Source: a virus. From it: a stretch of 64,000 nucleotides of DNA. The stretch covers positions 64,001 to 128,000 of IMG/VR virus record IMGVR_UViG_3300025137_000014; one strand, written 5' to 3'. Both the position numbers and the translations under genes were made by a program. Of the stretch, positions 39,062 through 63,826 are shown piece after piece. The notes beneath the pieces were generated by a model. The model saw only the letters and a program-made list of their open reading frames with translations. It searched no databases and was not told the origin of the DNA. Every line of letters begins with the position of its first letter. Positions within the stretch are counted from its first letter, which is position 1.

Positions 39062-40621
39062 ATGGCAGATTTAACTAAAAAAGCATATCAAAAAACGAAG
39101 TTTAGTAATGCACAACTATTAGAATTTAGTAAGTGTGCAAATGATCCTTTTTATTTTTTAAACACTTATTTCAAAATACAACACCCTACTAAGGGTAGTA
39201 TGACATATGATGCTTATCAGTTTCAAAAAGGATTACTAAATTCTTATCATAATTATAGATTCTCTATTTCTATGCTCGGTAGACAAATGGGTAAATCCAC
39301 TACTGCGGCAGGATATCTATTATGGTATGCGATGTTTATGCCAGACCAAACTATTCTAATTGCGGCACACAAATATTCAGGTGCTCAAGAAATTATGCAC
39401 AGAATTAGACATGCTTATGAATTATGTCCTGACCATATACGTGCTGGTGTTACAAGTTATAATAAAGGTAGTTTAGAATTTGATAACGGTTCACGTATTA
39501 TAGCACAAGCAACAACAGAAAATACAGGTCGTGGTCTTTCAATTTCTTTATTATACTGTGATGAGTTTGCATTCGTTAGACCTAATATTGCAAAAGAGTT
39601 TTGGACTTCAATATCTCCTACTCTAGCAACAGGTGGTAAAGCGATTATTACATCAACACCAAACTTAGATGATGACCAGTTCGCTCTCATATGGAGTGGT
39701 GCTAATAAAAATATAGATGAACACGGTAATGAAAAAGAAACAGGCATTAACGGCTTTAAACCATTTAAAGCTATTTGGAATGAACATCCTGATAGGGATG
39801 AAATTTGGTCTAAAGAAGAAAGAACACGTGTAGGTGAAGAAAGATTTTTACGTGAGCATGAATGTCAGTTTATTGCGTTTGATGAAACGTTAGTAGATAG
39901 TATAAAATTATCTCATTTAGAAGGTAAAGAACCTATTATGAAAACTGGGCAAGTAAGATGGTATGAAAAAATTAATAAAAATTCTACTTACGTTGTCGGT
40001 CTTGACCCTGCTATGGGTACGGGTGGAGACTATTCAGCGATTGAAGTTTGGTCATTGCCAGAACTAATACAAGTAGCAGAATGGCAGAGTAATCGTACAG
40101 ATATGAGAGGTCAAGTAAAAACAATGCATGATATTCTAACTATCTTAAATGATGAAATGAATGAATTAGGAAATAAAAGACCAGAAATATATTGGTCAGT
40201 AGAAAACAATTCATTAGGAGAAGCCGCTCTTATAGTCATTGAAGAAATGGATGAAGATAAATTTCCAGGTGAATTTTTACATGAACCAAAGAAAAAAGGA
40301 ATTCAAAAAGCAATAAGAAAAGGATTTACAACATCTTACAAAACTAAAATAACTGCATGTATGAAACTAAAGTCATGGATTGAGAGTGATAAAATGGTAC
40401 CACTAAGTAAGAATTTAATTAGAGAATGTAAGACATTTATTGCAAAAGGCAAGAGTTATGAAGCAAAATCAGGCGAAACAGATGATTTAGTAAGTGCTAC
40501 ATTGCTTTGTATCAGACAAATTCAAGTAATATCACGATTCGATGAAGAATTTATGGATACGTTAGGAGAATCTCTTGATAGTGAAGATGCTTTTAATGAC
40601 CCACTTCCTGTGCTATTTTGA
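39062..40621 (+). CDS. gp17: Terminase large subunit
   Basis: GRQMGKST Walker A, LYCDEFAF Walker B, ITSTPN, GLDPAMG, DDLVSA. Confidence 0.95.
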   Translation: MADLTKKAYQKTKFSNAQLLEFSKCANDPFYFLNTYFKIQHPTKGSMTYDAYQFQKGLLNSYHNYRFSISMLGRQMGKSTTAAGYLLWYAMFMPDQTILIAAHKYSGAQEIMHRIRHAYELCPDHIRAGVTSYNKGSLEFDNGSRIIAQATTENTGRGLSISLLYCDEFAFVRPNIAKEFWTSISPTLATGGKAIITSTPNLDDDQFALIWSGANKNIDEHGNEKETGINGFKPFKAIWNEHPDRDEIWSKEERTRVGEERFLREHECQFIAFDETLVDSIKLSHLEGKEPIMKTGQVRWYEKINKNSTYVVGLDPAMGTGGDYSAIEVWSLPELIQVAEWQSNRTDMRGQVKTMHDILTILNDEMNELGNKRPEIYWSVENNSLGEAALIVIEEMDEDKFPGEFLHEPKKKGIQKAIRKGFTTSYKTKITACMKLKSWIESDKMVPLSKNLIRECKTFIAKGKSYEAKSGETDDLVSATLLCIRQIQVISRFDEEFMDTLGESLDSEDAFNDPLPVLF

Positions 40622-50899: not shown

Positions 50900-50908
50900 A
50901 AGTGTCGA

Positions 50909-50952
50909 AAAACTTGACAATATAGCGATTCGTGTTATTATATATACATAAT
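50909..50952 (+). promoter_or_regulatory. Early promoter cassette, copy 1
   Basis: TTGACA-N16-TATTAT; 41/44 identical to 52419-52462. Confidence 0.8.
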
Positions 50953-50974
50953 CAAAAGAGAGGGACTAAATATT

Positions 50975-51397
50975 ATGGCCTATATATCAACTAACGAAGT
51001 TAAAGAAGTAAGAAAATCATTAAAAGAAAAGTTCGGTAAGAACATCAAATTTTCAGTAACACGTGACCATTACAGTGGCATTAGAGTTTCAATTATGGAA
51101 GGTGTTATGGACTTCTATAATGATGGTGACATGGATCATACTGACAAATATAACGGTAAAGTTCATAAGTTCGACGGTTATACTCAAGTAAATCATTATC
51201 ACACACATTTTTATGGTAAGTTTGCATCGTTGTTTGACGATATCAAAAGCATATGTCATACTGCTCCTGCTAATGCTGAAGGCGGTAGAGAATATTACGA
51301 TAACTCAGATGCCATGATTGACTACTTTGATACTGCATTTTATGTAAGCATCAATGTTGGTAAGTGGGATAAACCTTACATTCAAAAAGCGGCATAA
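50975..51397 (+). CDS. Hypothetical protein resembling LPD29 polyvalent-protein domain
   Basis: VRK.LK..F...KFSV....YS.I.V pattern, MIDYFD..FY. Confidence 0.5.
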   Translation: MAYISTNEVKEVRKSLKEKFGKNIKFSVTRDHYSGIRVSIMEGVMDFYNDGDMDHTDKYNGKVHKFDGYTQVNHYHTHFYGKFASLFDDIKSICHTAPANAEGGREYYDNSDAMIDYFDTAFYVSINVGKWDKPYIQKAA

Positions 51398-51791: not shown

Positions 51792-52435
51792 TGCCTGCAT
51801 GTAAAGGAGATACGTATTCGGTTCCACGCCCAGTTTGTCTAACAGAGGGTTGTGATAATTTAGCACATAATACTGCATCAGCGGCTAAGCCAGTTTGGCG
51901 CAAATACTGTGGTAAGTGTCATACGATACGTAGAAAGAATTTTCAAAATTTATCATCTAATTTAACTAAAAATCAATACCCTACTTGTTGTATAAACAAC
52001 TGTAGGAAAAAAGTAACACTATTGGGAACAGACCATGATGGCAATTTAAAGTTTTCTCAATACTGCGAAAGGCATGGAGGAGTCCCATATCATTTACAGT
52101 GGAGAAAACCTGCATGTGATAATATAAATGGTAAAGGATTGCTATCAGATAGAAGTCCTATTGGATTTGGTTGTACAACTTATATACATTATGATCCGCC
52201 CCTTCCTAAGGGAACAAAGTGGTTAGTAGATTATGGCTTCCCACAACCAATGTTACAAGTTGACCATATTGACGGTTGTCCATATAATGAACCAACGGAT
52301 GGGTCTAATTTTCAGACTTTATGTTCTTCTTGCCATGATTACAAATCTTGGAAATCTGGTGATGGGCAAACACCAGGACGAAAAACCCTAAGAAAACAAG
52401 AGGAAATTAATGTTGTCCAAAACTTGACAATATAG
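51791..52435 (+). CDS. Cys-rich protein with C-terminal HNH nuclease motif
   Basis: QVDHIDG...N...SNFQTLCSSCH. Confidence 0.7.
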   Translation: MPACKGDTYSVPRPVCLTEGCDNLAHNTASAAKPVWRKYCGKCHTIRRKNFQNLSSNLTKNQYPTCCINNCRKKVTLLGTDHDGNLKFSQYCERHGGVPYHLQWRKPACDNINGKGLLSDRSPIGFGCTTYIHYDPPLPKGTKWLVDYGFPQPMLQVDHIDGCPYNEPTDGSNFQTLCSSCHDYKSWKSGDGQTPGRKTLRKQEEINVVQNLTI

Positions 52436-52462
52436 CGAATCGTGTTATAGTATATACATAAT
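52419..52462 (+). promoter_or_regulatory. Early promoter cassette, copy 2
   Basis: TTGACA-N16-TATAGT; repeat of 50909-50952. Confidence 0.8.
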
Positions 52463-52490
52463 GAAGATTAACACACAAAGGAGTGAAAAT

Positions 52491-57611: not shown

Positions 57612-58146
57612 AGAAAAAGAAAAATATATCTATGAAAGCCCAGACGGAGGTAAAACTGTGACTAGAAGAAAGTTTGGAAGTATGGAAAAAGAACTATTAG
57701 AAGAATATAATGAAATTCAGTCCTGGAAAAAAGATGAATTAGAAAAAGAACGAAAAGATGAAGATTTCGTAACACTAGATTTAGGTACTGCTAATTTAAC
57801 TACTATAACAACAACTAACAATACAACAGATACAATGGATGTATCAGGTAATTACACATATACAGCAGGCTCACTGTCACCGTCTAGTTTAACTTTAGGT
57901 GGAAGTGGATATACTTTTGAAGATGTAGATCCCGACATACAAGTTACGGTCAATGGCAAAGAAAGAAGTATGAGTAAAGTGATTGAACAGGTAGATGATA
58001 TCTCAAAAAGATTAAAAGTTTTAGAAAAGCCTGATGAAAAGACTTTAGAAAAATATAAAGTACTTGCAGATATATATGAGCAATATAAAGTTGCTGATGC
58101 ATTCTTAAACTCACCGGGTCCGGAGGACGAAGATGAAGAACATTAA
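57592..58146 (+). CDS. Hypothetical protein
   Basis: IYESPDGGKTV N-terminus. Confidence 0.65.
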   Translation: MIKMTSKEKEKYIYESPDGGKTVTRRKFGSMEKELLEEYNEIQSWKKDELEKERKDEDFVTLDLGTANLTTITTTNNTTDTMDVSGNYTYTAGSLSPSSLTLGGSGYTFEDVDPDIQVTVNGKERSMSKVIEQVDDISKRLKVLEKPDEKTLEKYKVLADIYEQYKVADAFLNSPGPEDEDEEH

Positions 58147-58633
58147 TTATGATTGGGCAAAAGTAGAAAAATCTGTTCAACACATTGCAATGCAAATGTA
58201 TGAAAGTGGATGGAGACCAGATTATATAGTTGGTATAACTAGAGGTGGATTAGTACCAGCAGTTATGCTATCTCATATGACTAACATTCCAATGCATACA
58301 CTCTCAATACAACTTGGCGCAGAAGGTCTTGAAGAAAACACGGAAAGCAACTGTTGGATGGCAGAAGATGCCTTTGGTTACAAAGATAAGCGAAAAAATA
58401 TATTAGTTATTGATGATATTAATCGTGGTGGCGATGCTCTTGCATGGCTTATGAATGATTGGAAAGCAGGTTGTTTACCCAATGATACGTTAAGTTGGGA
58501 AAGTATATGGCATAATAATGTAAAATTTGCATCACTTATTATGGATCCAAATTCTATTGTAGATACTGATTACTATTGTGAGGAACTATATTCAGAGGAT
58601 GAAAACTGGGTAACATTTCCGTGGGAAAAATGA
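58133..58633 (+). CDS. Type I phosphoribosyltransferase (Gpt-like)
   Basis: IVGITRGGLVPAV.LSH, ILVIDDINRGG, WVTFPWE. Confidence 0.85.
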   Translation: MKNINYDWAKVEKSVQHIAMQMYESGWRPDYIVGITRGGLVPAVMLSHMTNIPMHTLSIQLGAEGLEENTESNCWMAEDAFGYKDKRKNILVIDDINRGGDALAWLMNDWKAGCLPNDTLSWESIWHNNVKFASLIMDPNSIVDTDYYCEELYSEDENWVTFPWEK

Positions 58634-59418
58634 AACACATTATTCCATTACAACTTGAACAAGAAACACATTTATTAGAATATTATGCTGGAACATATGG
58701 AGATTATGTTTCTGGTATTATATCTTATTCTATAGAAGATTTTTATGACAACTATTCTACTATGCCTGATGGTGATAGATATTGGGAAGTGGACGATGCT
58801 ATTGTAAGAAGAAATAGATATGCTTTAGGTCTTAGAGGCGGCGGCTACGAACATGTAGAGAATTATACGGACTTCATGTTGTCTCATAAAATATGGTTAG
58901 AATTTCAGCCTCACTATGATAATATGCAACCAAAAAAAGTATTGTTTAATACGCACCCAAGAATTGGATTTGCTGATGATGATACTATAATTTATAGAAC
59001 AATTACAAATAAATTTAAAAATACTAAAACAAAATTCTTAGCAATACCATTAGAGTTTAATGCTATATTTAAAGTTGCATGTAATGAATATTATACTAGT
59101 AGAATACATGACTCAGATATAGATTTAACAACATTTATCGGCATATTTAATTCCCATGTAGATAAACAAAAAGGTGCATTAAAGTACATACCAAAAGAAC
59201 AACTTTTTGTTATAGAGGATATAGATAATTTATCTGCAAAAGATATAGCATGTTACGGTGACGTAAATAGAGAAAAATTTGAAGAATACAAATCTAATTA
59301 TAATATAGAAAAAATGGATTTGTTAAATTATCACATGCAACGGCTTATGAAGTTTTGTGAGTTTACTAATCCAGAGATAACAAAAAAAATGAAAGACTAC
59401 GTTAATTCATCAATATAA
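58621..59418 (+). CDS. Hypothetical protein
   Basis: 265-aa ORF; no confident motif. Confidence 0.6.
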   Translation: MGKMKHIIPLQLEQETHLLEYYAGTYGDYVSGIISYSIEDFYDNYSTMPDGDRYWEVDDAIVRRNRYALGLRGGGYEHVENYTDFMLSHKIWLEFQPHYDNMQPKKVLFNTHPRIGFADDDTIIYRTITNKFKNTKTKFLAIPLEFNAIFKVACNEYYTSRIHDSDIDLTTFIGIFNSHVDKQKGALKYIPKEQLFVIEDIDNLSAKDIACYGDVNREKFEEYKSNYNIEKMDLLNYHMQRLMKFCEFTNPEITKKMKDYVNSSI

Positions 59419-60419
59419 TTAGCAAGTATCTTTCTATCTACATACGGTCTTATATTGTGTGTTTGAAAATCTGAAATCTTATAGTCTATTTCTTGTATAT
59501 TTAAATTATCAAATTTAAACTGTTTAACATAATCAGAAAATCCAATATATTCATTATCGTACTTTCCATATAGATAATCTACTTTAATATGTGGATAAGC
59601 ACCTAAGTGTCTATATGGATCTAATATTTTATTCTCAATATCTAATTTTTTAAAACCCCAACATTTAATCATATGCATCATTGCTACGTTCATCATGTCT
59701 AGCTTTTGTTCTTCAAGGTGTGACGGTCTGTTAAACCATTTGAAATAAGATTTAATCCAAGGGGAATGATCCCAAGAATAAGTTGATTGTCCACCTGTAG
59801 TTAATACATTTGTTACGATATCACTTAGATGGAATGCTACACTTAATGCACTACCGGCATGTTTAGAATCTGCATATATTATTACATGTTTATATTTTTT
59901 CTTAATATATTCTCTTATCTGATTGCACATTTTTTCTTGTGTATCATTCTGTTTGCTTACACCTAATACCATTGCACTAGGGTATAAAGACTCAGGATAT
60001 CTTAATGGGTCTTCATTTACAATTAACAAATCAGTATCTAAGTTTACAATTTTTTCACTTACATTTGTTAGTGAACTTGTCAGTCTACCCTCATGCCCTG
60101 CATAACTTGTAAAGTGAATTATTAGTTTGTCAAAATCTTTATCTGTCTTTTTCCAACACATAGTATAATCTTCACTGACATTTTCAAACTTATCAGTATC
60201 ATATTGATATACTATATCGGAATAAACATCCCAACTACCTGTTTTTGTTTTTTGTGTGTAAGTATCTACAACATCTTTTTTGTAGATTTTGGTGAAGATA
60301 TCGCTACTTTTTATATTGCGTAAGTCAACATACTTATTGTATACTAGCTTTTCATGTAAAAAGTATAAGTCAATTTCATCGTTTAAGTCTATATCTAAAT
60401 CGAGTAGTTTAATTTTCAT
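59397..60419 (-). CDS. Possible alpha/beta-hydrolase-fold protein
   Basis: IIYADSKHAGSAL resembles a Ser nucleophile elbow; later YLYGKYD; inference only. Confidence 0.45.
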   Translation of the reverse strand: MKIKLLDLDIDLNDEIDLYFLHEKLVYNKYVDLRNIKSSDIFTKIYKKDVVDTYTQKTKTGSWDVYSDIVYQYDTDKFENVSEDYTMCWKKTDKDFDKLIIHFTSYAGHEGRLTSSLTNVSEKIVNLDTDLLIVNEDPLRYPESLYPSAMVLGVSKQNDTQEKMCNQIREYIKKKYKHVIIYADSKHAGSALSVAFHLSDIVTNVLTTGGQSTYSWDHSPWIKSYFKWFNRPSHLEEQKLDMMNVAMMHMIKCWGFKKLDIENKILDPYRHLGAYPHIKVDYLYGKYDNEYIGFSDYVKQFKFDNLNIQEIDYKISDFQTHNIRPYVDRKILANYIDELT

Positions 60420-60655
60420 TAATCGTACTCCGCTAGATACTCCACTAAATCTTTAACGTTTTTAATTTCGTCTAGTCTTTGGTTGTCTAATTCGATATCT
60501 AAATCATCTTCTAGTGAAACTAGAATTTCAATACTATCTAAAGAATCTACACCAATGTCTGTAAATGGTTTACCCGATTCAATAAATGCATCAGTTAGTT
60601 CAACCTCTGCCCTATCAAGTGTAATTGCCTTTAGTGCTTCTAATGTTCTACTCAT
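60419..60655 (-). CDS. acpP: Acyl carrier protein, 78 aa (start MSRTL)
   Basis: F.DIGVDSLD.IE....LED..DIEL...I..V.DL..Y with phosphopantetheine Ser. Confidence 0.85.
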   Translation of the reverse strand: MSRTLEALKAITLDRAEVELTDAFIESGKPFTDIGVDSLDSIEILVSLEDDLDIELDNQRLDEIKNVKDLVEYLAEYD

Positions 60656-60656
60656 T

Positions 60657-61595
60657 TTAATAGCCGCCTTCGTTCTCTTTTGTGTGTTCATAAAATGGTG
60701 CAAGTTTGAAGTTTTCTGTAATACGTCCTCTTCTTTTGCTACCTGGGTCTGGAATACCACCATCATTGTCAGTATCCCAATTAGTTATTTTTACCCATCT
60801 TCCTCTATTTAGAAGTTTGTTTCCTTCCTTCAGTGGGAATAGAATAGTGTTCTTTTCATTAAACTTATTGTAGTAAGGTACACCGTGAAAGCTCCAAATA
60901 TAGTCCTCTGAGACATTAAACTGGTCTGCACATAGTTTCACTAGTCCTTGTAGTTTAATGTTACCGTCTGTGTCTTTCTGATATCTACCTAGTTGGCCAA
61001 CGTTTTTAATTCTCATCATTACGTTGTTTATTTTTTCTTTTTCTATAAGTTCTTTTAGTCTTGCTGGTGCTTCATAGTTAATCTCTGGAATAATAATAGT
61101 ACCAGTATTTAAATTCATTTTTCTATCTACAATATTACGAAGTGCTTTTAGTTTTTTCTTTGAACAACGCATTTCGTCTATTTGTTCATACCAATCATCG
61201 TTGTCTACGCCATTCATACTTAAAGTTACACTACGTAAGCCTGCTTCAATTAAAGTATTTAAATATTTGGCATGTGACAATCTTAAACCATTTGTTACTA
61301 AAGTACAACTATGTTTTCTTCCGTTGGTACGTCCACGCTCATAGACTGCACGAATAAAATTTGCACAGTTAGGAGACATTGTAGGCTCTGCACCAATAAT
61401 ACGGACAAATGCACGACCACCAAGCCTATCCATGAAATCTTTGAATTTATCTAAATCCATATCAGGTGGTTCTCTGTTAGGTATATAACAGTTTTTACAG
61501 GTCATATTGCATTTATGTGTAATATCTGCACATATGTCTACAAACGTATTATCTTCTGGTTCTGAAATATCATAATTAAAGAGTTTATGAAGCAT
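60657..61595 (-). CDS. Radical SAM enzyme
   Basis: CNMTCKNC, GAEPT, LVTNG; start MLHKL assumed (track start 61631). Confidence 0.85.
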   Translation of the reverse strand: MLHKLFNYDISEPEDNTFVDICADITHKCNMTCKNCYIPNREPPDMDLDKFKDFMDRLGGRAFVRIIGAEPTMSPNCANFIRAVYERGRTNGRKHSCTLVTNGLRLSHAKYLNTLIEAGLRSVTLSMNGVDNDDWYEQIDEMRCSKKKLKALRNIVDRKMNLNTGTIIIPEINYEAPARLKELIEKEKINNVMMRIKNVGQLGRYQKDTDGNIKLQGLVKLCADQFNVSEDYIWSFHGVPYYNKFNEKNTILFPLKEGNKLLNRGRWVKITNWDTDNDGGIPDPGSKRRGRITENFKLAPFYEHTKENEGGY

Positions 61596-61610
61596 ATAGT
61601 TTTGTACCTT

Positions 61611-61640
61611 AATAAATATGTTTATGTACATCTATTTATC
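61611..61640. promoter_or_regulatory. Face-to-face late-type promoters
   Basis: + AATAAATA 61611-61618; - GATAAATA 61640-61633. Confidence 0.55.
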
Positions 61641-61658
61641 GTCTCAGGAAACACAACA

Positions 61659-62267
61659 ATGTTAAATCATTTATACAAGTTTAACTATAAAATTGATAAA
61701 GACCAACTCAGAAAAGAACACAAACTAATGCAAGAAAGTGAAGAAACTTCCTTACATACAGTTAATACTGAGTTATTAGAGACAGTTAATGCAGGTAGAA
61801 ATACTGGCGAAGATATATTCCCTACGTATCATGATTTAAAAGATAAGGACCAATGGGATGATATGGATACTTTAAAAATAAGAGCATTTAAGGAGTATCA
61901 ATACCAAGATAATTATCCAGAAATGAAAAGATTGACTAATGACTTTGCTAATATATTAGATAGTAAAGACATAACACCATTCTTTGTATTACAAGAGCAA
62001 GACTCAGACTTTCCAATGCATATTGATATGGGGTTTCAATGTGCAATAAACTTAATTATAGATGGTGGGGATACACCAATTATGTTCAGAGAAGACGATG
62101 GATCTATACATAAATACAACTACGATAATGCATTACTTAACATCTGTAACGTCTTTCACGGTGTACCTAAACAACAGGATATGAAAAGAATGCTACTTAA
62201 ATTTAGAATAAAAGATGTATCATATGATGATGCATGTAAACGTATGATGGAACATTTTAGTGAATAA
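61659..62267 (+). CDS. 2OG-Fe(II)-type dioxygenase-like protein, paralogue 1
   Basis: MHID...CAINLI...FHGV...RMLLK. Confidence 0.6.
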   Translation: MLNHLYKFNYKIDKDQLRKEHKLMQESEETSLHTVNTELLETVNAGRNTGEDIFPTYHDLKDKDQWDDMDTLKIRAFKEYQYQDNYPEMKRLTNDFANILDSKDITPFFVLQEQDSDFPMHIDMGFQCAINLIIDGGDTPIMFREDDGSIHKYNYDNALLNICNVFHGVPKQQDMKRMLLKFRIKDVSYDDACKRMMEHFSE

Positions 62268-62823
62268 TTCTATACATAATATATATTTTGTAATAAACAG
62301 AGAAATGCTTATTAAAGAAAGTGAGATTTGTCAATTTGTGCCAATCAATCGTGTTACATTGAAACGTGTTCAGTTAGGTAGCTATGATGCAAAGGGTAAA
62401 AAGTTTTCTGACTATCTTAATAAAGAAGATAAAGATTGGTGGATGAGGCAAGATACATGGCAATCAAGCATGAATGCTGATGCAGAAATGTTATCTAAGA
62501 TGCCAGAGACTACTAGAATACTTTCTATATTTAAAAAAATTATAGGCACAAATGATATCGAGGCTAACTTTTTTACACAAAAAGTAGGCACTAACGTTAA
62601 GATGCATGTTGATGTTGGTACCGCTTGTGCTATCAATTTTATACTCAAAGGAAAAGAAACTCCAATAGTATTTGAAGAAGATGGGACATTTCATTATAAA
62701 GATGCATTGATAAACGTTAGTAAGAAGCATATGGTACCAAAGCAAACATCTACAGATAGAATGCTTTTTAAGTTAAGAATTTTAAACATGCCTTTTGAAG
62801 AAGTAAGAGAAAAACTAAGATGA
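62260..62823 (+). CDS. 2OG-Fe(II)-type dioxygenase-like protein, paralogue 2
   Basis: MHVD...CAINFI...KHMV...RMLFK. Confidence 0.6.
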   Translation: MNNSIHNIYFVINREMLIKESEICQFVPINRVTLKRVQLGSYDAKGKKFSDYLNKEDKDWWMRQDTWQSSMNADAEMLSKMPETTRILSIFKKIIGTNDIEANFFTQKVGTNVKMHVDVGTACAINFILKGKETPIVFEEDGTFHYKDALINVSKKHMVPKQTSTDRMLFKLRILNMPFEEVREKLR

Positions 62824-63452
62824 ACAAGAGCCAAATATTTATATTATTACATCATATATCGTTAGCAGTAGGTATAGCAATGTATGGGTTTGAATGGCCA
62901 TGGGCCATTGTATCATTTTTCTTTGGAATGTTTTGGGCTTGGGTAGTTGGACATAATATTATTCATTACTATTTTGCTCATGGCAAATATAAAGATAATC
63001 TGAAAAGTTATTTTTACACATTATTGTCATTAACGTCTGGACTAGGGTCACCGATATCATTTAGTGCATCACATCGACAACATCATAGATTCACAGATAC
63101 AGAAAAGGATCCGCATTCGCCACATCATATAGGCTGGAAACGTGTATACTTTTTAAATTGGGAACCACAGAATATTAATCCTAGGCTTCTTGCTGATTTT
63201 GCCAGAAGTAAATTTCAGAAATGGGTTCACAAACATTGGTATTATTTACATATTGCAATAGTGCTAGTGATTGCTGTTATAGATTTGAGATTATTATTTT
63301 TTGCGTTATCACCTGGTGTTTTATATAGTTTCCATAGTGCTAGTTTGACAAATACATTATCTCATATTGGTGGTGTACAGAGAAATGTACAGTTACTAAG
63401 ACCTCTTGCATGGTGGGGCTGGAACCACGCTGACCATCATGACTACAAATAA
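62820..63452 (+). CDS. Membrane fatty acid desaturase (delta-9-like)
   Basis: His boxes HYYFAH, HRQHH, HADHH plus NTLSH; hydrophobic segments. Confidence 0.85.
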   Translation: MNKSQIFILLHHISLAVGIAMYGFEWPWAIVSFFFGMFWAWVVGHNIIHYYFAHGKYKDNLKSYFYTLLSLTSGLGSPISFSASHRQHHRFTDTEKDPHSPHHIGWKRVYFLNWEPQNINPRLLADFARSKFQKWVHKHWYYLHIAIVLVIAVIDLRLLFFALSPGVLYSFHSASLTNTLSHIGGVQRNVQLLRPLAWWGWNHADHHDYK

Positions 63453-63456
63453 GCTA

Positions 63457-63485
63457 TTGACTAATCGTATATAATCGTATATAAT
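63457..63485 (+). promoter_or_regulatory. Sigma70-type promoter built from tandem TAATCGTATA repeat
   Basis: TTGACT-N17-TATAAT. Confidence 0.75.
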
Positions 63486-63505: not shown

Positions 63506-63826
63506 ATGCCTATGGCAGAATATGGCGAACTTATGCGACATTCTAATGTCAAGAAACGACTTGAAAGACTTAGAAAATTGCAGAATAAAGTAAAGAACTT
63601 AAGAAGGTTCCATAGTGATTTTGAAAACAAAGAGTTTTTAGAATGGACCTGTATGTCACATGAAGATATTAATTATGAAAAGCTATTAGTTGAAGGTGCT
63701 GGATATGTAACACAGTTAGTAGACTGGTGTAATGGTCATTGTAATGATTTTTATGTTGCTTATCAAGGAAAATTGTATTTTAAAAATGATACTGATGCGG
63801 CGTACTTTACAATGGTGTGGAAATAG
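63506..63826 (+). CDS. Hypothetical protein
   Basis: SD AGGAG; 106 aa. Confidence 0.65.
   Translation: MPMAEYGELMRHSNVKKRLERLRKLQNKVKNLRRFHSDFENKEFLEWTCMSHEDINYEKLLVEGAGYVTQLVDWCNGHCNDFYVAYQGKLYFKNDTDAAYFTMVWK

Follow-up and report, generated by a model that had tools for sequence, protein, structure and literature searches.

We found that a marine jumbo phage, a myophage of about 340 kb, carries a tightly packed six-gene cassette encoding a radical SAM enzyme, an acyl carrier protein (ACP), an esterase-fold enzyme, two Fe/2OG oxygenases and a membrane desaturase. With moderate confidence we propose that it represents a late-expressed, carrier-protein-dependent module for the tailoring and hand-over of acyl groups. 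The cassette lies in a stretch of 64,000 nucleotides that was analysed as a whole (the window), and all six open reading frames (ORFs) were found where the first-pass annotation had placed them. The start of the radical SAM gene was corrected to M13 (60657-61595, minus strand), giving a protein of 312 aa, the length of its closest database homologues. The ACP start was also corrected, in agreement with homologues (78 aa, 60419-60655, minus strand), and the start of parA, the first oxygenase gene, was set at 61659. Owing to the corrected starts, the divergent spacer measures about 63 bp (61596-61658). On the minus strand, a single base separates the TAA stop of the radical SAM gene from the ATG of the ACP gene, whose own stop shares a TAATG overlap with the start of the hydrolase-fold gene (59397-60419, 340 aa). 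On the plus strand, parA (61659-62267, 202 aa) and parB (62260-62823, 187 aa) overlap by 8 nt, and parB overlaps the desaturase gene (62820-63452, 210 aa) in ATGA. Genes are translationally coupled within each of the two divergent arms, and these overlapping or 1-nt junctions, read directly in the sequence, bear out the earlier description of two tightly coupled divergent operons.

Two motifs resembling T4-type late promoters lie in the spacer, one directed at each arm: GATAAATA (minus strand, 61639) and AATAAATA (plus strand, 61612). ATAAATA is rarer in the window than expected from base composition (24 occurrences vs about 48), and 12 of the 24 sites precede an ATG-started ORF (80 aa or longer) by 15-70 nt. 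These motif matches suggest that the spacer may contain promoters for both arms.

Co-occurrence in relatives had been chosen beforehand as the test that could overturn the idea of a cluster. The radical SAM gene was found to retain ACP, oxygenase, hydrolase and desaturase partners down to 48% identity. Across 11 distinct architectures, with radical SAM proteins 48-95% identical, the partner sets shift in a mosaic manner: an ACP adjoins the radical SAM gene in six, a DSBH, cupin or TauD oxygenase accompanies it in nine, a hydrolase-family gene of Ser or Cys form in six and a desaturase in five, and AcpS lies next to it in one. This mosaic co-occurrence in diverged relatives indicates that the gene arrangement is more than chance, and because the pieces recur jointly in many diverged phages, the cassette probably serves to make and pass on an unusual acyl group. 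In lineages L005-L010, the radical SAM and hydrolase genes have no ACP gene between them, and these partial contigs yielded no PP-binding gene; an ACP encoded in cis is thus dispensable.

We considered whether the six genes might form no single pathway, being instead independent auxiliary genes gathered in a variable genome region: a stand-alone vFAD-like desaturase, generic protein or nucleic-acid hydroxylases, and a radical SAM-ACP pair with a role of its own. The mosaic composition would fit this explanation, as all six genes are kept only in the closest relatives, and so would the two arms being separate transcription units and the unrelated GMP reductase gene that interrupts the cluster in L017. 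Given how abundant 2OG oxygenases are among marine myophages, some oxygenase adjacency could also reflect packing in hyperplastic regions. Moreover, cyanophage desaturases function alone (PMC5776448). The start and stop codon overlaps inside each arm argue against independent genes, however, and a few partner families recur to either side of the radical SAM gene, in varied order, in lineages as diverged as 48% identity, which is the usual signature of functional linkage. We therefore consider this explanation distinctly unlikely and, from coupling and co-occurrence, infer a joint role of the six genes in one pathway.

The radical SAM enzyme clearly belongs to its superfamily (PF04055, 59.1 bits vs a cut-off of 29.5), and its single CxxxCxxC cluster (C41-x3-C45-x2-C48 in ORF numbering) is invariant in an alignment of 10 homologues. 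The alignment columns hold one further conserved cysteine (C156) and no SPASM or second-cluster Cys set. The C-terminal domain is conserved (RRGRxT...AP..E..K.NE..Y), and no PDB chain matched it in profile searches. The best PDB profile match of the family was GDGT-MAS (7tol, 1.1e-17, restricted to profile positions 22-221), followed by MoaA (1.6e-12), in both cases for the core barrel only. The best NCBIfam matches (TrsS, MoaA and Tes) all scored far under their cut-offs. Identity with MoaA (GTP 3',8-cyclase) was rejected (TIGR02666, 52.9 vs a cut-off of 284; no C-terminal Cys triad), as was identity with the tetraether lipid synthase Tes/GDGT-MAS (NF045702, 36.7 vs a cut-off of 450; barrel-only PDB match). 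The 'MoaA' labels that JGI attaches to homologues are automatic names. At least 1198 homologues were found at E<=1e-10; among the 120 matches listed, lengths were 261-318 aa and all came from metagenome or assembly sources. The enzyme thus belongs to a single-cluster family of about 310 aa with over a thousand marine homologues, almost none of them cellular.

ParA and ParB share about 32% identity and gave no Pfam, PHROG or NCBIfam match. Their family comprises 365 clusters at 50% identity, has no Pfam model and displays an invariant HxD...H...R motif in its alignments; in ParB, His116, Asp118, His157 and Arg167 are invariant across 38 diverse sequences. Foldseek searches with the AF2 model of ParB (pLDDT 93.5) returned the human AspH oxygenase domain as top matches (E 9e-7), and in an exhaustive VIA search all 50 of the 50 matches listed were 2OG-oxygenase-type folds (Z 8.8-11.8). 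The nearest named Atlas clusters were Asp_Arg_Hydrox and 2OG-FeII_Oxy_3. Hhalign comparison with the AspH-like cupins that adjoin the radical SAM gene in other phages yielded a probability of 41% with the metal ligands aligned. Judged from the model and the alignments, both proteins are predicted to adopt the 2OG/Fe(II) oxygenase fold, with a DSBH, a metal triad and a basic residue. Membership of Asp_Arg_Hydrox (PF05118) itself was rejected, as none of the 38 family members scanned reached the Pfam cut-off; kinship with PF05118 is seen by structure, Atlas search and hhalign.

As AspH is a protein hydroxylase and many NCBIfam matches of the radical SAM enzyme, all weak, are peptide maturases, the radical SAM-oxygenase pair might modify a peptide or virion protein (RiPP-like or PTM), with the 'ACP' serving as partner or scaffold. 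This appears very improbable to us: the enzyme lacks SPASM or auxiliary-cluster cysteines, no conserved precursor-like peptide was found beside the pair, and the ACP is a genuine PP-binding domain whose attachment Ser is invariant and which, in one lineage, has an adjoining AcpS.

Indeed, the ACP scored well above the PP-binding cut-off (PF00550, 39.9 bits vs 20.8), carries the phosphopantetheine attachment Ser in the motif GVDSLD and matched PHROG 5934 'acyl carrier protein' at 8e-11. Asp37-Ser38 is invariant in an alignment of 10 diverged homologues. Within NCBIfam, the protein matched AcpP-type fatty-acid ACP models best, and identity with the housekeeping AcpP was rejected (TIGR00517, 44.5 bits vs a cut-off of 70.45; E 1e-11). 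The protein is a diverged, dedicated carrier protein. At locus L016, AcpS, radical SAM, ACP and the Cys-type hydrolase form one operon in which AcpS is located directly upstream of the radical SAM gene.

The first-pass annotation had held that host FAS and AcpS would be needed. A correction follows from the complete close relative G001 (342.6 kb), which is 85-90% identical at the nucleotide level to the window's genome and colinear with it. G001 encodes its own AcpS, three ACPs (two beyond the cassette ACP) and an operon of a FadD-like ligase, a halogenase, a desaturase and a FabF-like ketosynthase (KS). The window's genome is an incomplete record whose colinearity with G001 is limited to 117-309 kb, and the AcpS, the two further ACPs, the ligase and the KS lie in regions just outside it. 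No AMP-binding gene is present in the record of the window's genome, and in G001 the ligase is about 160 kb away. Since the G001 genes fall outside the incomplete record, the phage is not necessarily fully reliant on its host for AcpS or FAS. The earlier pathway reading is thus upheld by the domains and their co-occurrence and has to be amended in its reliance on the host. Both phage PPTases (from L016 and the complete relative) scored above the AcpS cut-off (TIGR00516) and are of the AcpS, not the Sfp, type. A fatty-acyl substrate is favoured because the PPTases are AcpS-type, the ACP is AcpP-like and the distant operon of the relative is FadD-like and FabF-like.

Alternatively, the carrier might hold an amino acid or small acid, as in Dlt systems or NRPS tailoring, that is modified by radical SAM, AspH-like and TauD-like enzymes (through beta-hydroxylation or a mutase-type shift, for instance) and then transferred by the hydrolase-fold protein to a glycan, nucleotide or protein. 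Proteins and carrier-tethered amino acids are also among the substrates of TauD- and AspH-type enzymes; SyrP, which is TauD-type, hydroxylates carrier-tethered amino acids. In lineage L025/L043, TauD-family and AspH-family oxygenases flank the ACP, and in L017 and L019 short AMP-binding fragments adjoin the radical SAM gene. The rare bacterial radical SAM homologues reside in a conserved operon with a heme-oxygenase-like diiron enzyme, an unknown gene and a DltB-like MBOAT, a protein whose known donor is a D-alanyl-carrier protein. This operon, which is adjoined by a fatty-acid hydroxylase gene in one of two lineages and in which no ACP was detected, is another 'oxidise then O-acylate' setting and as such also counts in favour of the main proposal. 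We nevertheless regard an amino acid substrate as unlikely. The best-scoring models for the AMP-binding proteins are those of long-chain fatty-acid ligases, the desaturases and the FabF-like KS indicate fatty chains, and no condensation or amino-acid adenylation domain is prominent. The AcpP-type matches of the ACP and the AcpS type of both PPTases argue in the same direction.

The hydrolase-fold protein gave no Pfam, PHROG or NCBIfam match and represents an orphan family: only 51 homologues were found among 5.8 billion proteins, none of them with a Pfam domain. Foldseek and VIA matches of its AF2 model (pLDDT 90.2) were all alpha/beta hydrolases, and an Atlas search was concordant. Ser185, Asp288 and His321 are invariant in the homologue alignment. 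In the model, Ser185 sits at a DSKH turn that links strand 178-183 to helix 185-197, Asp288 follows strand 279-285 and His321 follows strand 306-311. The protein is thus predicted to be an alpha/beta hydrolase with its residues in Ser-Asp-His order. The canonical GxSxG is absent from it, the sequence being A-D-S-K-H instead. Remote relatives carry Cys at the Ser185 position, a swap that a true nucleophile would show and that supports this role for Ser185. We propose that the protein acts as an off-loading thioesterase or an acyltransferase.

The desaturase reached the FA_desaturase cut-off exactly (PF00487, 29.7 bits vs 29.7), and its family profile matched SCD1 (4ymk) at 2.3e-12 across all His boxes. 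The motifs HxxxxH, HRQHH followed by DTxxDPHSP, NTLSH and a C-terminal HADHH are present, and the His boxes are invariant in the family alignment. By tblastn, a weak match to an 'FA_desaturase domain protein' of Pelagibacter phage Mosig was obtained. The DesA-family equivalog NF049918 was rejected (33.7 vs a cut-off of 400; E 2e-8). By FA_desaturase criteria, the protein is a predicted minimal enzyme of the SCD/DesC branch. All domain assignments of the first-pass annotation therefore held when tested by Pfam scores, structure prediction and invariant residues, including its His-box desaturase, its two HxD...H...R dioxygenase paralogues and what it had called a possible alpha/beta hydrolase; for the latter two, the structure prediction it had suggested confirmed the folds.

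The substrate, step order, acceptor and timing in the following scheme are our proposal, built on the gene identities, folds, catalytic residues, coupling and co-occurrence described above. The ACP would be converted to its holo form, probably by the phage AcpS encoded in the complete relative, and loaded with an acyl chain, probably fatty-acid-like, drawn from the host FAS pool or made by the FadD-like ligase and FabF-like synthase encoded elsewhere in the phage genome. The radical SAM enzyme, translated just before the ACP, would remove a hydrogen from the tethered chain at an unactivated carbon, and the two AspH-like oxygenases and the SCD-type di-iron enzyme would introduce hydroxyls or unsaturation. 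SCD/DesC-type desaturases normally use acyl-CoA or acyl-lipids, not acyl-ACP, and the desaturase may act downstream or independently of the ACP steps. Finally, the Ser185-Asp288-His321 enzyme would accept the chain from the thioester as an acyl-enzyme, followed by hydrolysis or by antigen 85/CsaC-like transfer onto a hydroxyl group of an acceptor lipid or glycan. We also speculate, as a possible though doubtful extension, that the radical SAM family performs a so-far undescribed C-H functionalisation of an ACP-tethered chain at the core of a genome-distributed phage pathway (counting AcpS, three ACPs, the ligase, the FabF-like synthase, the halogenase, the oxygenases and the desaturases), whose oxidised or halogenated product would be moved by a new Ser/Cys alpha/beta-hydrolase acyltransferase to a glycan or lipid on the surface of the infected cell or virion.

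Several known systems resemble parts of the cassette. GDGT-MAS/Tes (7tol), a lipid-tail-coupling enzyme and the best solved structure for the radical SAM profile, targets unactivated carbons of lipid tails, whereas the phage enzyme has about 310 aa, one cluster and no extra Cys sets, and only its generic core barrel is alignable. Among PF05118 enzymes, the AspH oxygenase domain is the best structural match of ParB, LpxO and OlsC hydroxylate lipid acyl chains, and the cupins adjoining the radical SAM gene in other lineages match this Pfam family; ParA and ParB, in contrast, fall below every Pfam model, possess the complete HxD...H triad and lack a membrane anchor. The hydrolase-fold protein shares its fold (Z 15-16 over about 220 residues) and Ser-Asp-His order with esterase D/S-formylglutathione hydrolase, antigen 85 and the O-acetyltransferase CsaC, which cleave thioesters or acylate sugar hydroxyls via an acyl-Ser intermediate. 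It is only 6-11% identical to them, is without a Pfam family, adds an N-terminal helical part of about 70 residues and has the DSKH turn in place of GxSxG, with Cys used by its remote relatives.

JamABC/TtuABC terminal-alkyne cassettes consist of an acyl-ACP ligase, a membrane enzyme of the FA-desaturase family and a dedicated ACP. In these, a small dedicated ACP, a di-iron desaturase and an AMP-forming ligase tailor an ACP-tethered fatty chain, and all three gene types exist in the present phage group. Here, however, the core partners are a radical SAM enzyme, 2OG oxygenases and an alpha/beta-hydrolase, the ligase is absent from the window and the desaturase is of the SCD/DesC branch; membership was rejected, as the adjacent ligase-desaturase-ACP arrangement is not found and the record of the window's genome has no AMP-binding gene. 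Cyanophage vFADs, DesC-like delta-9 lipid desaturases described as stand-alone acyl-lipid desaturases (PMC5776448), are likewise phage-encoded DesC/SCD-type membrane enzymes with characteristic His boxes. The present desaturase, at 210 aa, is the shorter protein and stops at the third His box; it is translationally coupled to two oxygenases and stands opposite the radical SAM/ACP/hydrolase operon. Finally, although the phage locus has no MBOAT, it resembles Dlt-type carrier/MBOAT systems in that its bacterial radical SAM homologues are operonic with a DltB-like MBOAT and in the logic of a carrier-bound acyl group that is moved to a surface polymer.

All six open reading frames that the first-pass annotation had placed between 59397 and 63452 are present as described. 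The minus-strand arm encodes a radical SAM enzyme (60657..61595), an ACP (60419..60655) and a 340-aa hydrolase-fold protein (59397..60419), and the plus-strand arm two oxygenase-fold paralogues, parA (61659..62267) and parB (62260..62823), and a desaturase (62820..63452). Read from the sequence, the radical SAM stop codon is followed by one base and then the ACP start, the ACP stop and hydrolase start overlap in TAATG, parA and parB overlap by 8 nt, and parB and the desaturase gene share ATGA. Judged by the lengths of homologues, the radical SAM protein begins at Met13 and has 312 aa, and the ACP has 78 aa. With parA starting at 61659, the divergent spacer is 63 bp long.

This spacer carries the motifs GATAAATA toward the radical SAM arm and AATAAATA toward the oxygenase arm. 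ATAAATA is underrepresented in the window, with 24 sites where ~48 would be expected from composition; 12 of the 24 precede an ATG-started ORF of 80 aa or more by 15-70 nt. Because motifs face both arms and ATAAATA is rare and placed in this way, both arms may plausibly be transcribed late, in the T4 manner. A sigma-70 promoter scan of the cassette region gave a count not above that of shuffled sequence. A near-consensus sigma-70-like promoter (63457-63485; TTGACT, 17 nt, TATAAT; 11/12) sits just past the desaturase stop; here the plus-strand arm ends and another unit begins (gene 63506-63826). At the other edge lie a phosphoribosyltransferase-domain gene (58133-58633) and the gene for a 265-aa protein without a family (58621-59418), both convergent to the hydrolase gene, whose 3' end overlaps that of its convergent neighbour by 22 nt. 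These two genes were excluded as cassette members since their synteny is seen in closer relatives only.

The window corresponds to bases 64001-128000 of an IMG/VR virus record that comprises 187 kb and is rated 51% complete. Its large terminase (39062-40621) shares 55% identity with the counterparts in PA5oct-type jumbo myophages. The complete genome of a close relative, G001, measures 342.6 kb with terminal repeats, and the record aligns colinearly with 117-309 kb of it, individual blocks being 75-92% identical at the nucleotide level, mostly 85-92%. The cassette therefore belongs to a marine jumbo phage of ~340 kb, of which the record represents about half. Isolate phages gave no DNA match to the cluster, and a tblastn search of 50,697 phage records with the radical SAM protein was likewise negative; no cultured relative among the phage records searched carries the cassette.

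The idea that these genes form a cluster also withstood a survey of co-occurrence in relatives. We gathered 28 viral loci via the radical SAM protein, 3 via exact-protein look-ups and 11 via the hydrolase; searching the 31 radical SAM loci with a profile of each family resolved eleven architectures, in which the partner genes do recur. The window and L001-L004 share the order hydrolase, ACP, radical SAM, divergent junction, par, par, desaturase (architecture a); L005-L007 have the same order without the ACP (b), and L008-L010 consist of hydrolase, radical SAM, divergent junction and desaturase (c). A cupin gene is separated by a divergent junction from radical SAM, ACP and two hydrolase genes in L011 and L015 (d), and from radical SAM and ACP in L012-L014 (e). 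L016 has AcpS, radical SAM, ACP and a Cys-hydrolase (f), and L017-L022 a cupin-like gene, divergent junction, radical SAM, GMP reductase, an AMP-binding fragment and par (g). Radical SAM, ACP, cupin and Cys-hydrolase follow one another in L023, L024 and L042 (h), while L025 and L043 carry cupin, radical SAM, TauD, ACP, desaturase, class II aldolase and desaturase (i). L026 is a reduced form of the latter (j), and L044 has radical SAM alone (k). In L028, an extra, truncated locus, a cupin adjoins the radical SAM gene. The cupins match PF05118/Cupin_2 and in hhalign are weakly related to the par proteins, the metal ligands falling in register. Thus the same few partner families stand beside the radical SAM gene, down to 48% identity, in varying orders and orientations, as is typical of functionally linked genes. 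That independent genes are merely packed together here is, in our view, improbable, even though marine myophages are rich in 2OG oxygenases.

The GMP reductase beside the radical SAM gene in L017 was ruled out as a pathway member, being an ordinary nucleotide-metabolism gene. AMP-binding proteins of 235-254 aa (L017:7866-8630, L019:7931-8638 and G001 43.8-44.5 kb) cover the central adenylation domain only (positions ~170-333), and two of them adjoin the radical SAM gene. Truncation, a split gene or a new kind of minimal ligase could each account for them.

The ACP scores 39.9 bits against Pfam, and its best NCBIfam matches are AcpP-type models, under their cut-offs. Its Asp-Ser attachment site is invariant in ten homologues with identity down to 28%. 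The AcpS directly upstream in L016 exceeds the TIGR00516 cut-off, and no other single observation argues as strongly that the ACP functions as a carrier linked to the radical SAM enzyme. About 2 kb from this operon lies a gene for an SbmA/BacA-like inner-membrane transporter (L016:6850-7935).

In the first-pass annotation the pathway depended on AcpS and FAS of the host. This has to be revised, as G001 encodes AcpS (316 kb), three ACPs (34, 115 and 245 kb), a FadD-like ligase and a FabF-like ketosynthase. The latter two belong to a six-gene operon at 82.1-88.5 kb (L064:2103-8550), outside the window's record, which encodes a FadD-like AMP ligase (454 aa), a flavin-dependent halogenase of the Trp-halogenase family (558 aa), a desaturase-like protein (241 aa), a protein without assignment (206 aa), an FA_desaturase (258 aa) and the FabF-like ketosynthase (382 aa). 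Such a set of halogenase and ketosynthase is unusual in a phage. The window's record contains a single PP-binding gene, and neither an AMP-binding gene nor a PF01648 match indicative of a PPTase; as it ends ~7 kb short of the G001 AcpS position, the phage may still encode a PPTase. The record shows no DNA match to the G001 AcpS region except for a repeated element of ~60 bp. Copies of this element (~50-70 bp) occur at 50908-50975, 52419-52465 and seven more sites of the record, and in G001 downstream of a GreA-like gene near AcpS (L040:2722-2790). At 111.9-115.2 kb, G001 carries a carbamoyltransferase, DUF6071, an AspH-like cupin, a divergent junction and a second ACP that is 55% identical to the window's (L065). 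This locus is a copy of L012 (architecture e) minus the radical SAM gene between cupin and ACP, which suggests that the radical SAM and ACP unit has moved between loci.

What does the ACP carry? A fatty chain is the better fit to PPTases of the AcpS type, an AcpP-like ACP and genes resembling FadD and FabF. The main rival holds that the ACP is loaded with an aminoacyl group or another small acid in the manner of Dlt or NRPS systems, which we consider unlikely.

The radical SAM enzyme scores 59.1 bits against Pfam, with C41/C45/C48 and a GAEPT segment invariant. Its family is large, with at least 1198 matches at E<=1e-10 and lengths of 261-318 aa among the 120 matches listed. Every NCBIfam match was far below cut-off. 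Among solved structures, its profile comes closest to the lipid-tail-coupling GDGT-MAS (1.1e-17) and then to MoaA (1.6e-12), the likeness being confined to the common barrel; MoaA and Tes readings were ruled out by scores and missing cluster cysteines. The C-terminal ~100 residues are basic and strongly conserved and matched no PDB chain by profile. A single further Cys is conserved, and a SPASM-like set is absent. We regard a peptide or protein modification system as very improbable; this reading and that of packed genes both rank below the aminoacyl or small-acid rival.

Neither parA nor parB matched Pfam, PHROG or NCBIfam, Pfam matched no family in 38 par-family members, and a PDB sequence search with the parA/parB profiles returned nothing meaningful. 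In 38 diverse sequences of the family (365 clusters at 50% identity), His116, Asp118, His157 and Arg167 are invariant. The earlier dioxygenase call gained support from the predicted fold of parB (pLDDT 93.5), which among known structures comes closest to the AspH oxygenase domain; in an exhaustive structure search all 50 of the 50 matches listed were 2OG-oxygenase-type folds. The desaturase was likewise correctly named and is a minimal 210-aa membrane desaturase of the SCD/DesC branch with every His box present.

The orphan family of the 340-aa protein numbers 51 sequences, and a PDB search with the family profile gave nothing meaningful. Structure prediction bore out the suspected alpha/beta-hydrolase fold (pLDDT 90), with Z 15-16 to esterase D/S-formylglutathione hydrolases, antigen 85 mycolyltransferases and the CsaC capsule O-acetyltransferase. 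Ser185, Asp288 and His321, all invariant, sit at the elbow, post-strand and pre-terminal-helix positions canonical for the fold. The 343-358-aa proteins after the ACP in L016 and L023 are remote relatives (hhalign 54% and 29%) in which Cys replaces Ser185, as expected for a real nucleophile.

Two cellular loci emerged from a scan of 185,579 species genomes. One lies on a short Balneola MAG contig and has cupin and radical SAM genes paired as in the phages; the other belongs to a gammaproteobacterium of the BD1-7 clade, in whose order 4/301 genomes have a homologue. In L079, L086 and L087 (BD1-7 clade and related gammaproteobacteria), the radical SAM protein is 35% identical to the phage enzyme. 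Two diverged bacterial versions share an operon of radical SAM, a heme-oxygenase-like diiron enzyme (Haem_oxygenas_2), a DltB-like MBOAT and a 342-aa protein; an OlsE-like fatty-acid hydroxylase gene lies nearby in L079 and L086, of the BD1-7 lineage, and no homologue of it was found in L087. The bacterial 342-aa, 203-aa and 218-aa neighbours were ruled out as kin of the phage hydrolase, cupin or par proteins and are unrelated. The bacterial operon, which is rare, again joins radical SAM with oxygen-dependent iron oxidases and an O-acyltransferase, and the partner families differ.

The most economical reading, to which we give an even chance, is a dedicated ACP-dependent acyl-tailoring module. 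The phage ACP would bear an acyl chain, the radical SAM enzyme and the iron oxygenases or desaturase would functionalise it while bound, and the Ser-His-Asp enzyme would then take it off or transfer it. Against this reading stand architectures b and c, which have no ACP in cis, and the usual preference of SCD-type enzymes for acyl-CoA or lipids. If it is true, marine phages produce their own specialised acyl metabolites in late infection, and radical SAM, Pfam-less 2OG-oxygenase and orphan hydrolase families without assigned function gain an experimental context. The small ACP offers a direct handle, its chain being readable by mass spectrometry.

Our literature search found no description of a radical SAM, ACP, hydrolase and oxygenase cassette. 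Phage DesC-like desaturases are already known (PMC5776448). Phage ACPs, too, are known as PHROG 5934. Carrier-protein tailoring cassettes are textbook bacterial biochemistry. To our knowledge, the phage auxiliary lipid genes known so far are mainly single enzymes such as cyanophage desaturases; the cassette is a recurring multi-enzyme module around a carrier protein, in a jumbo-phage lineage that also has AcpS, a ketosynthase, a ligase and a halogenase.
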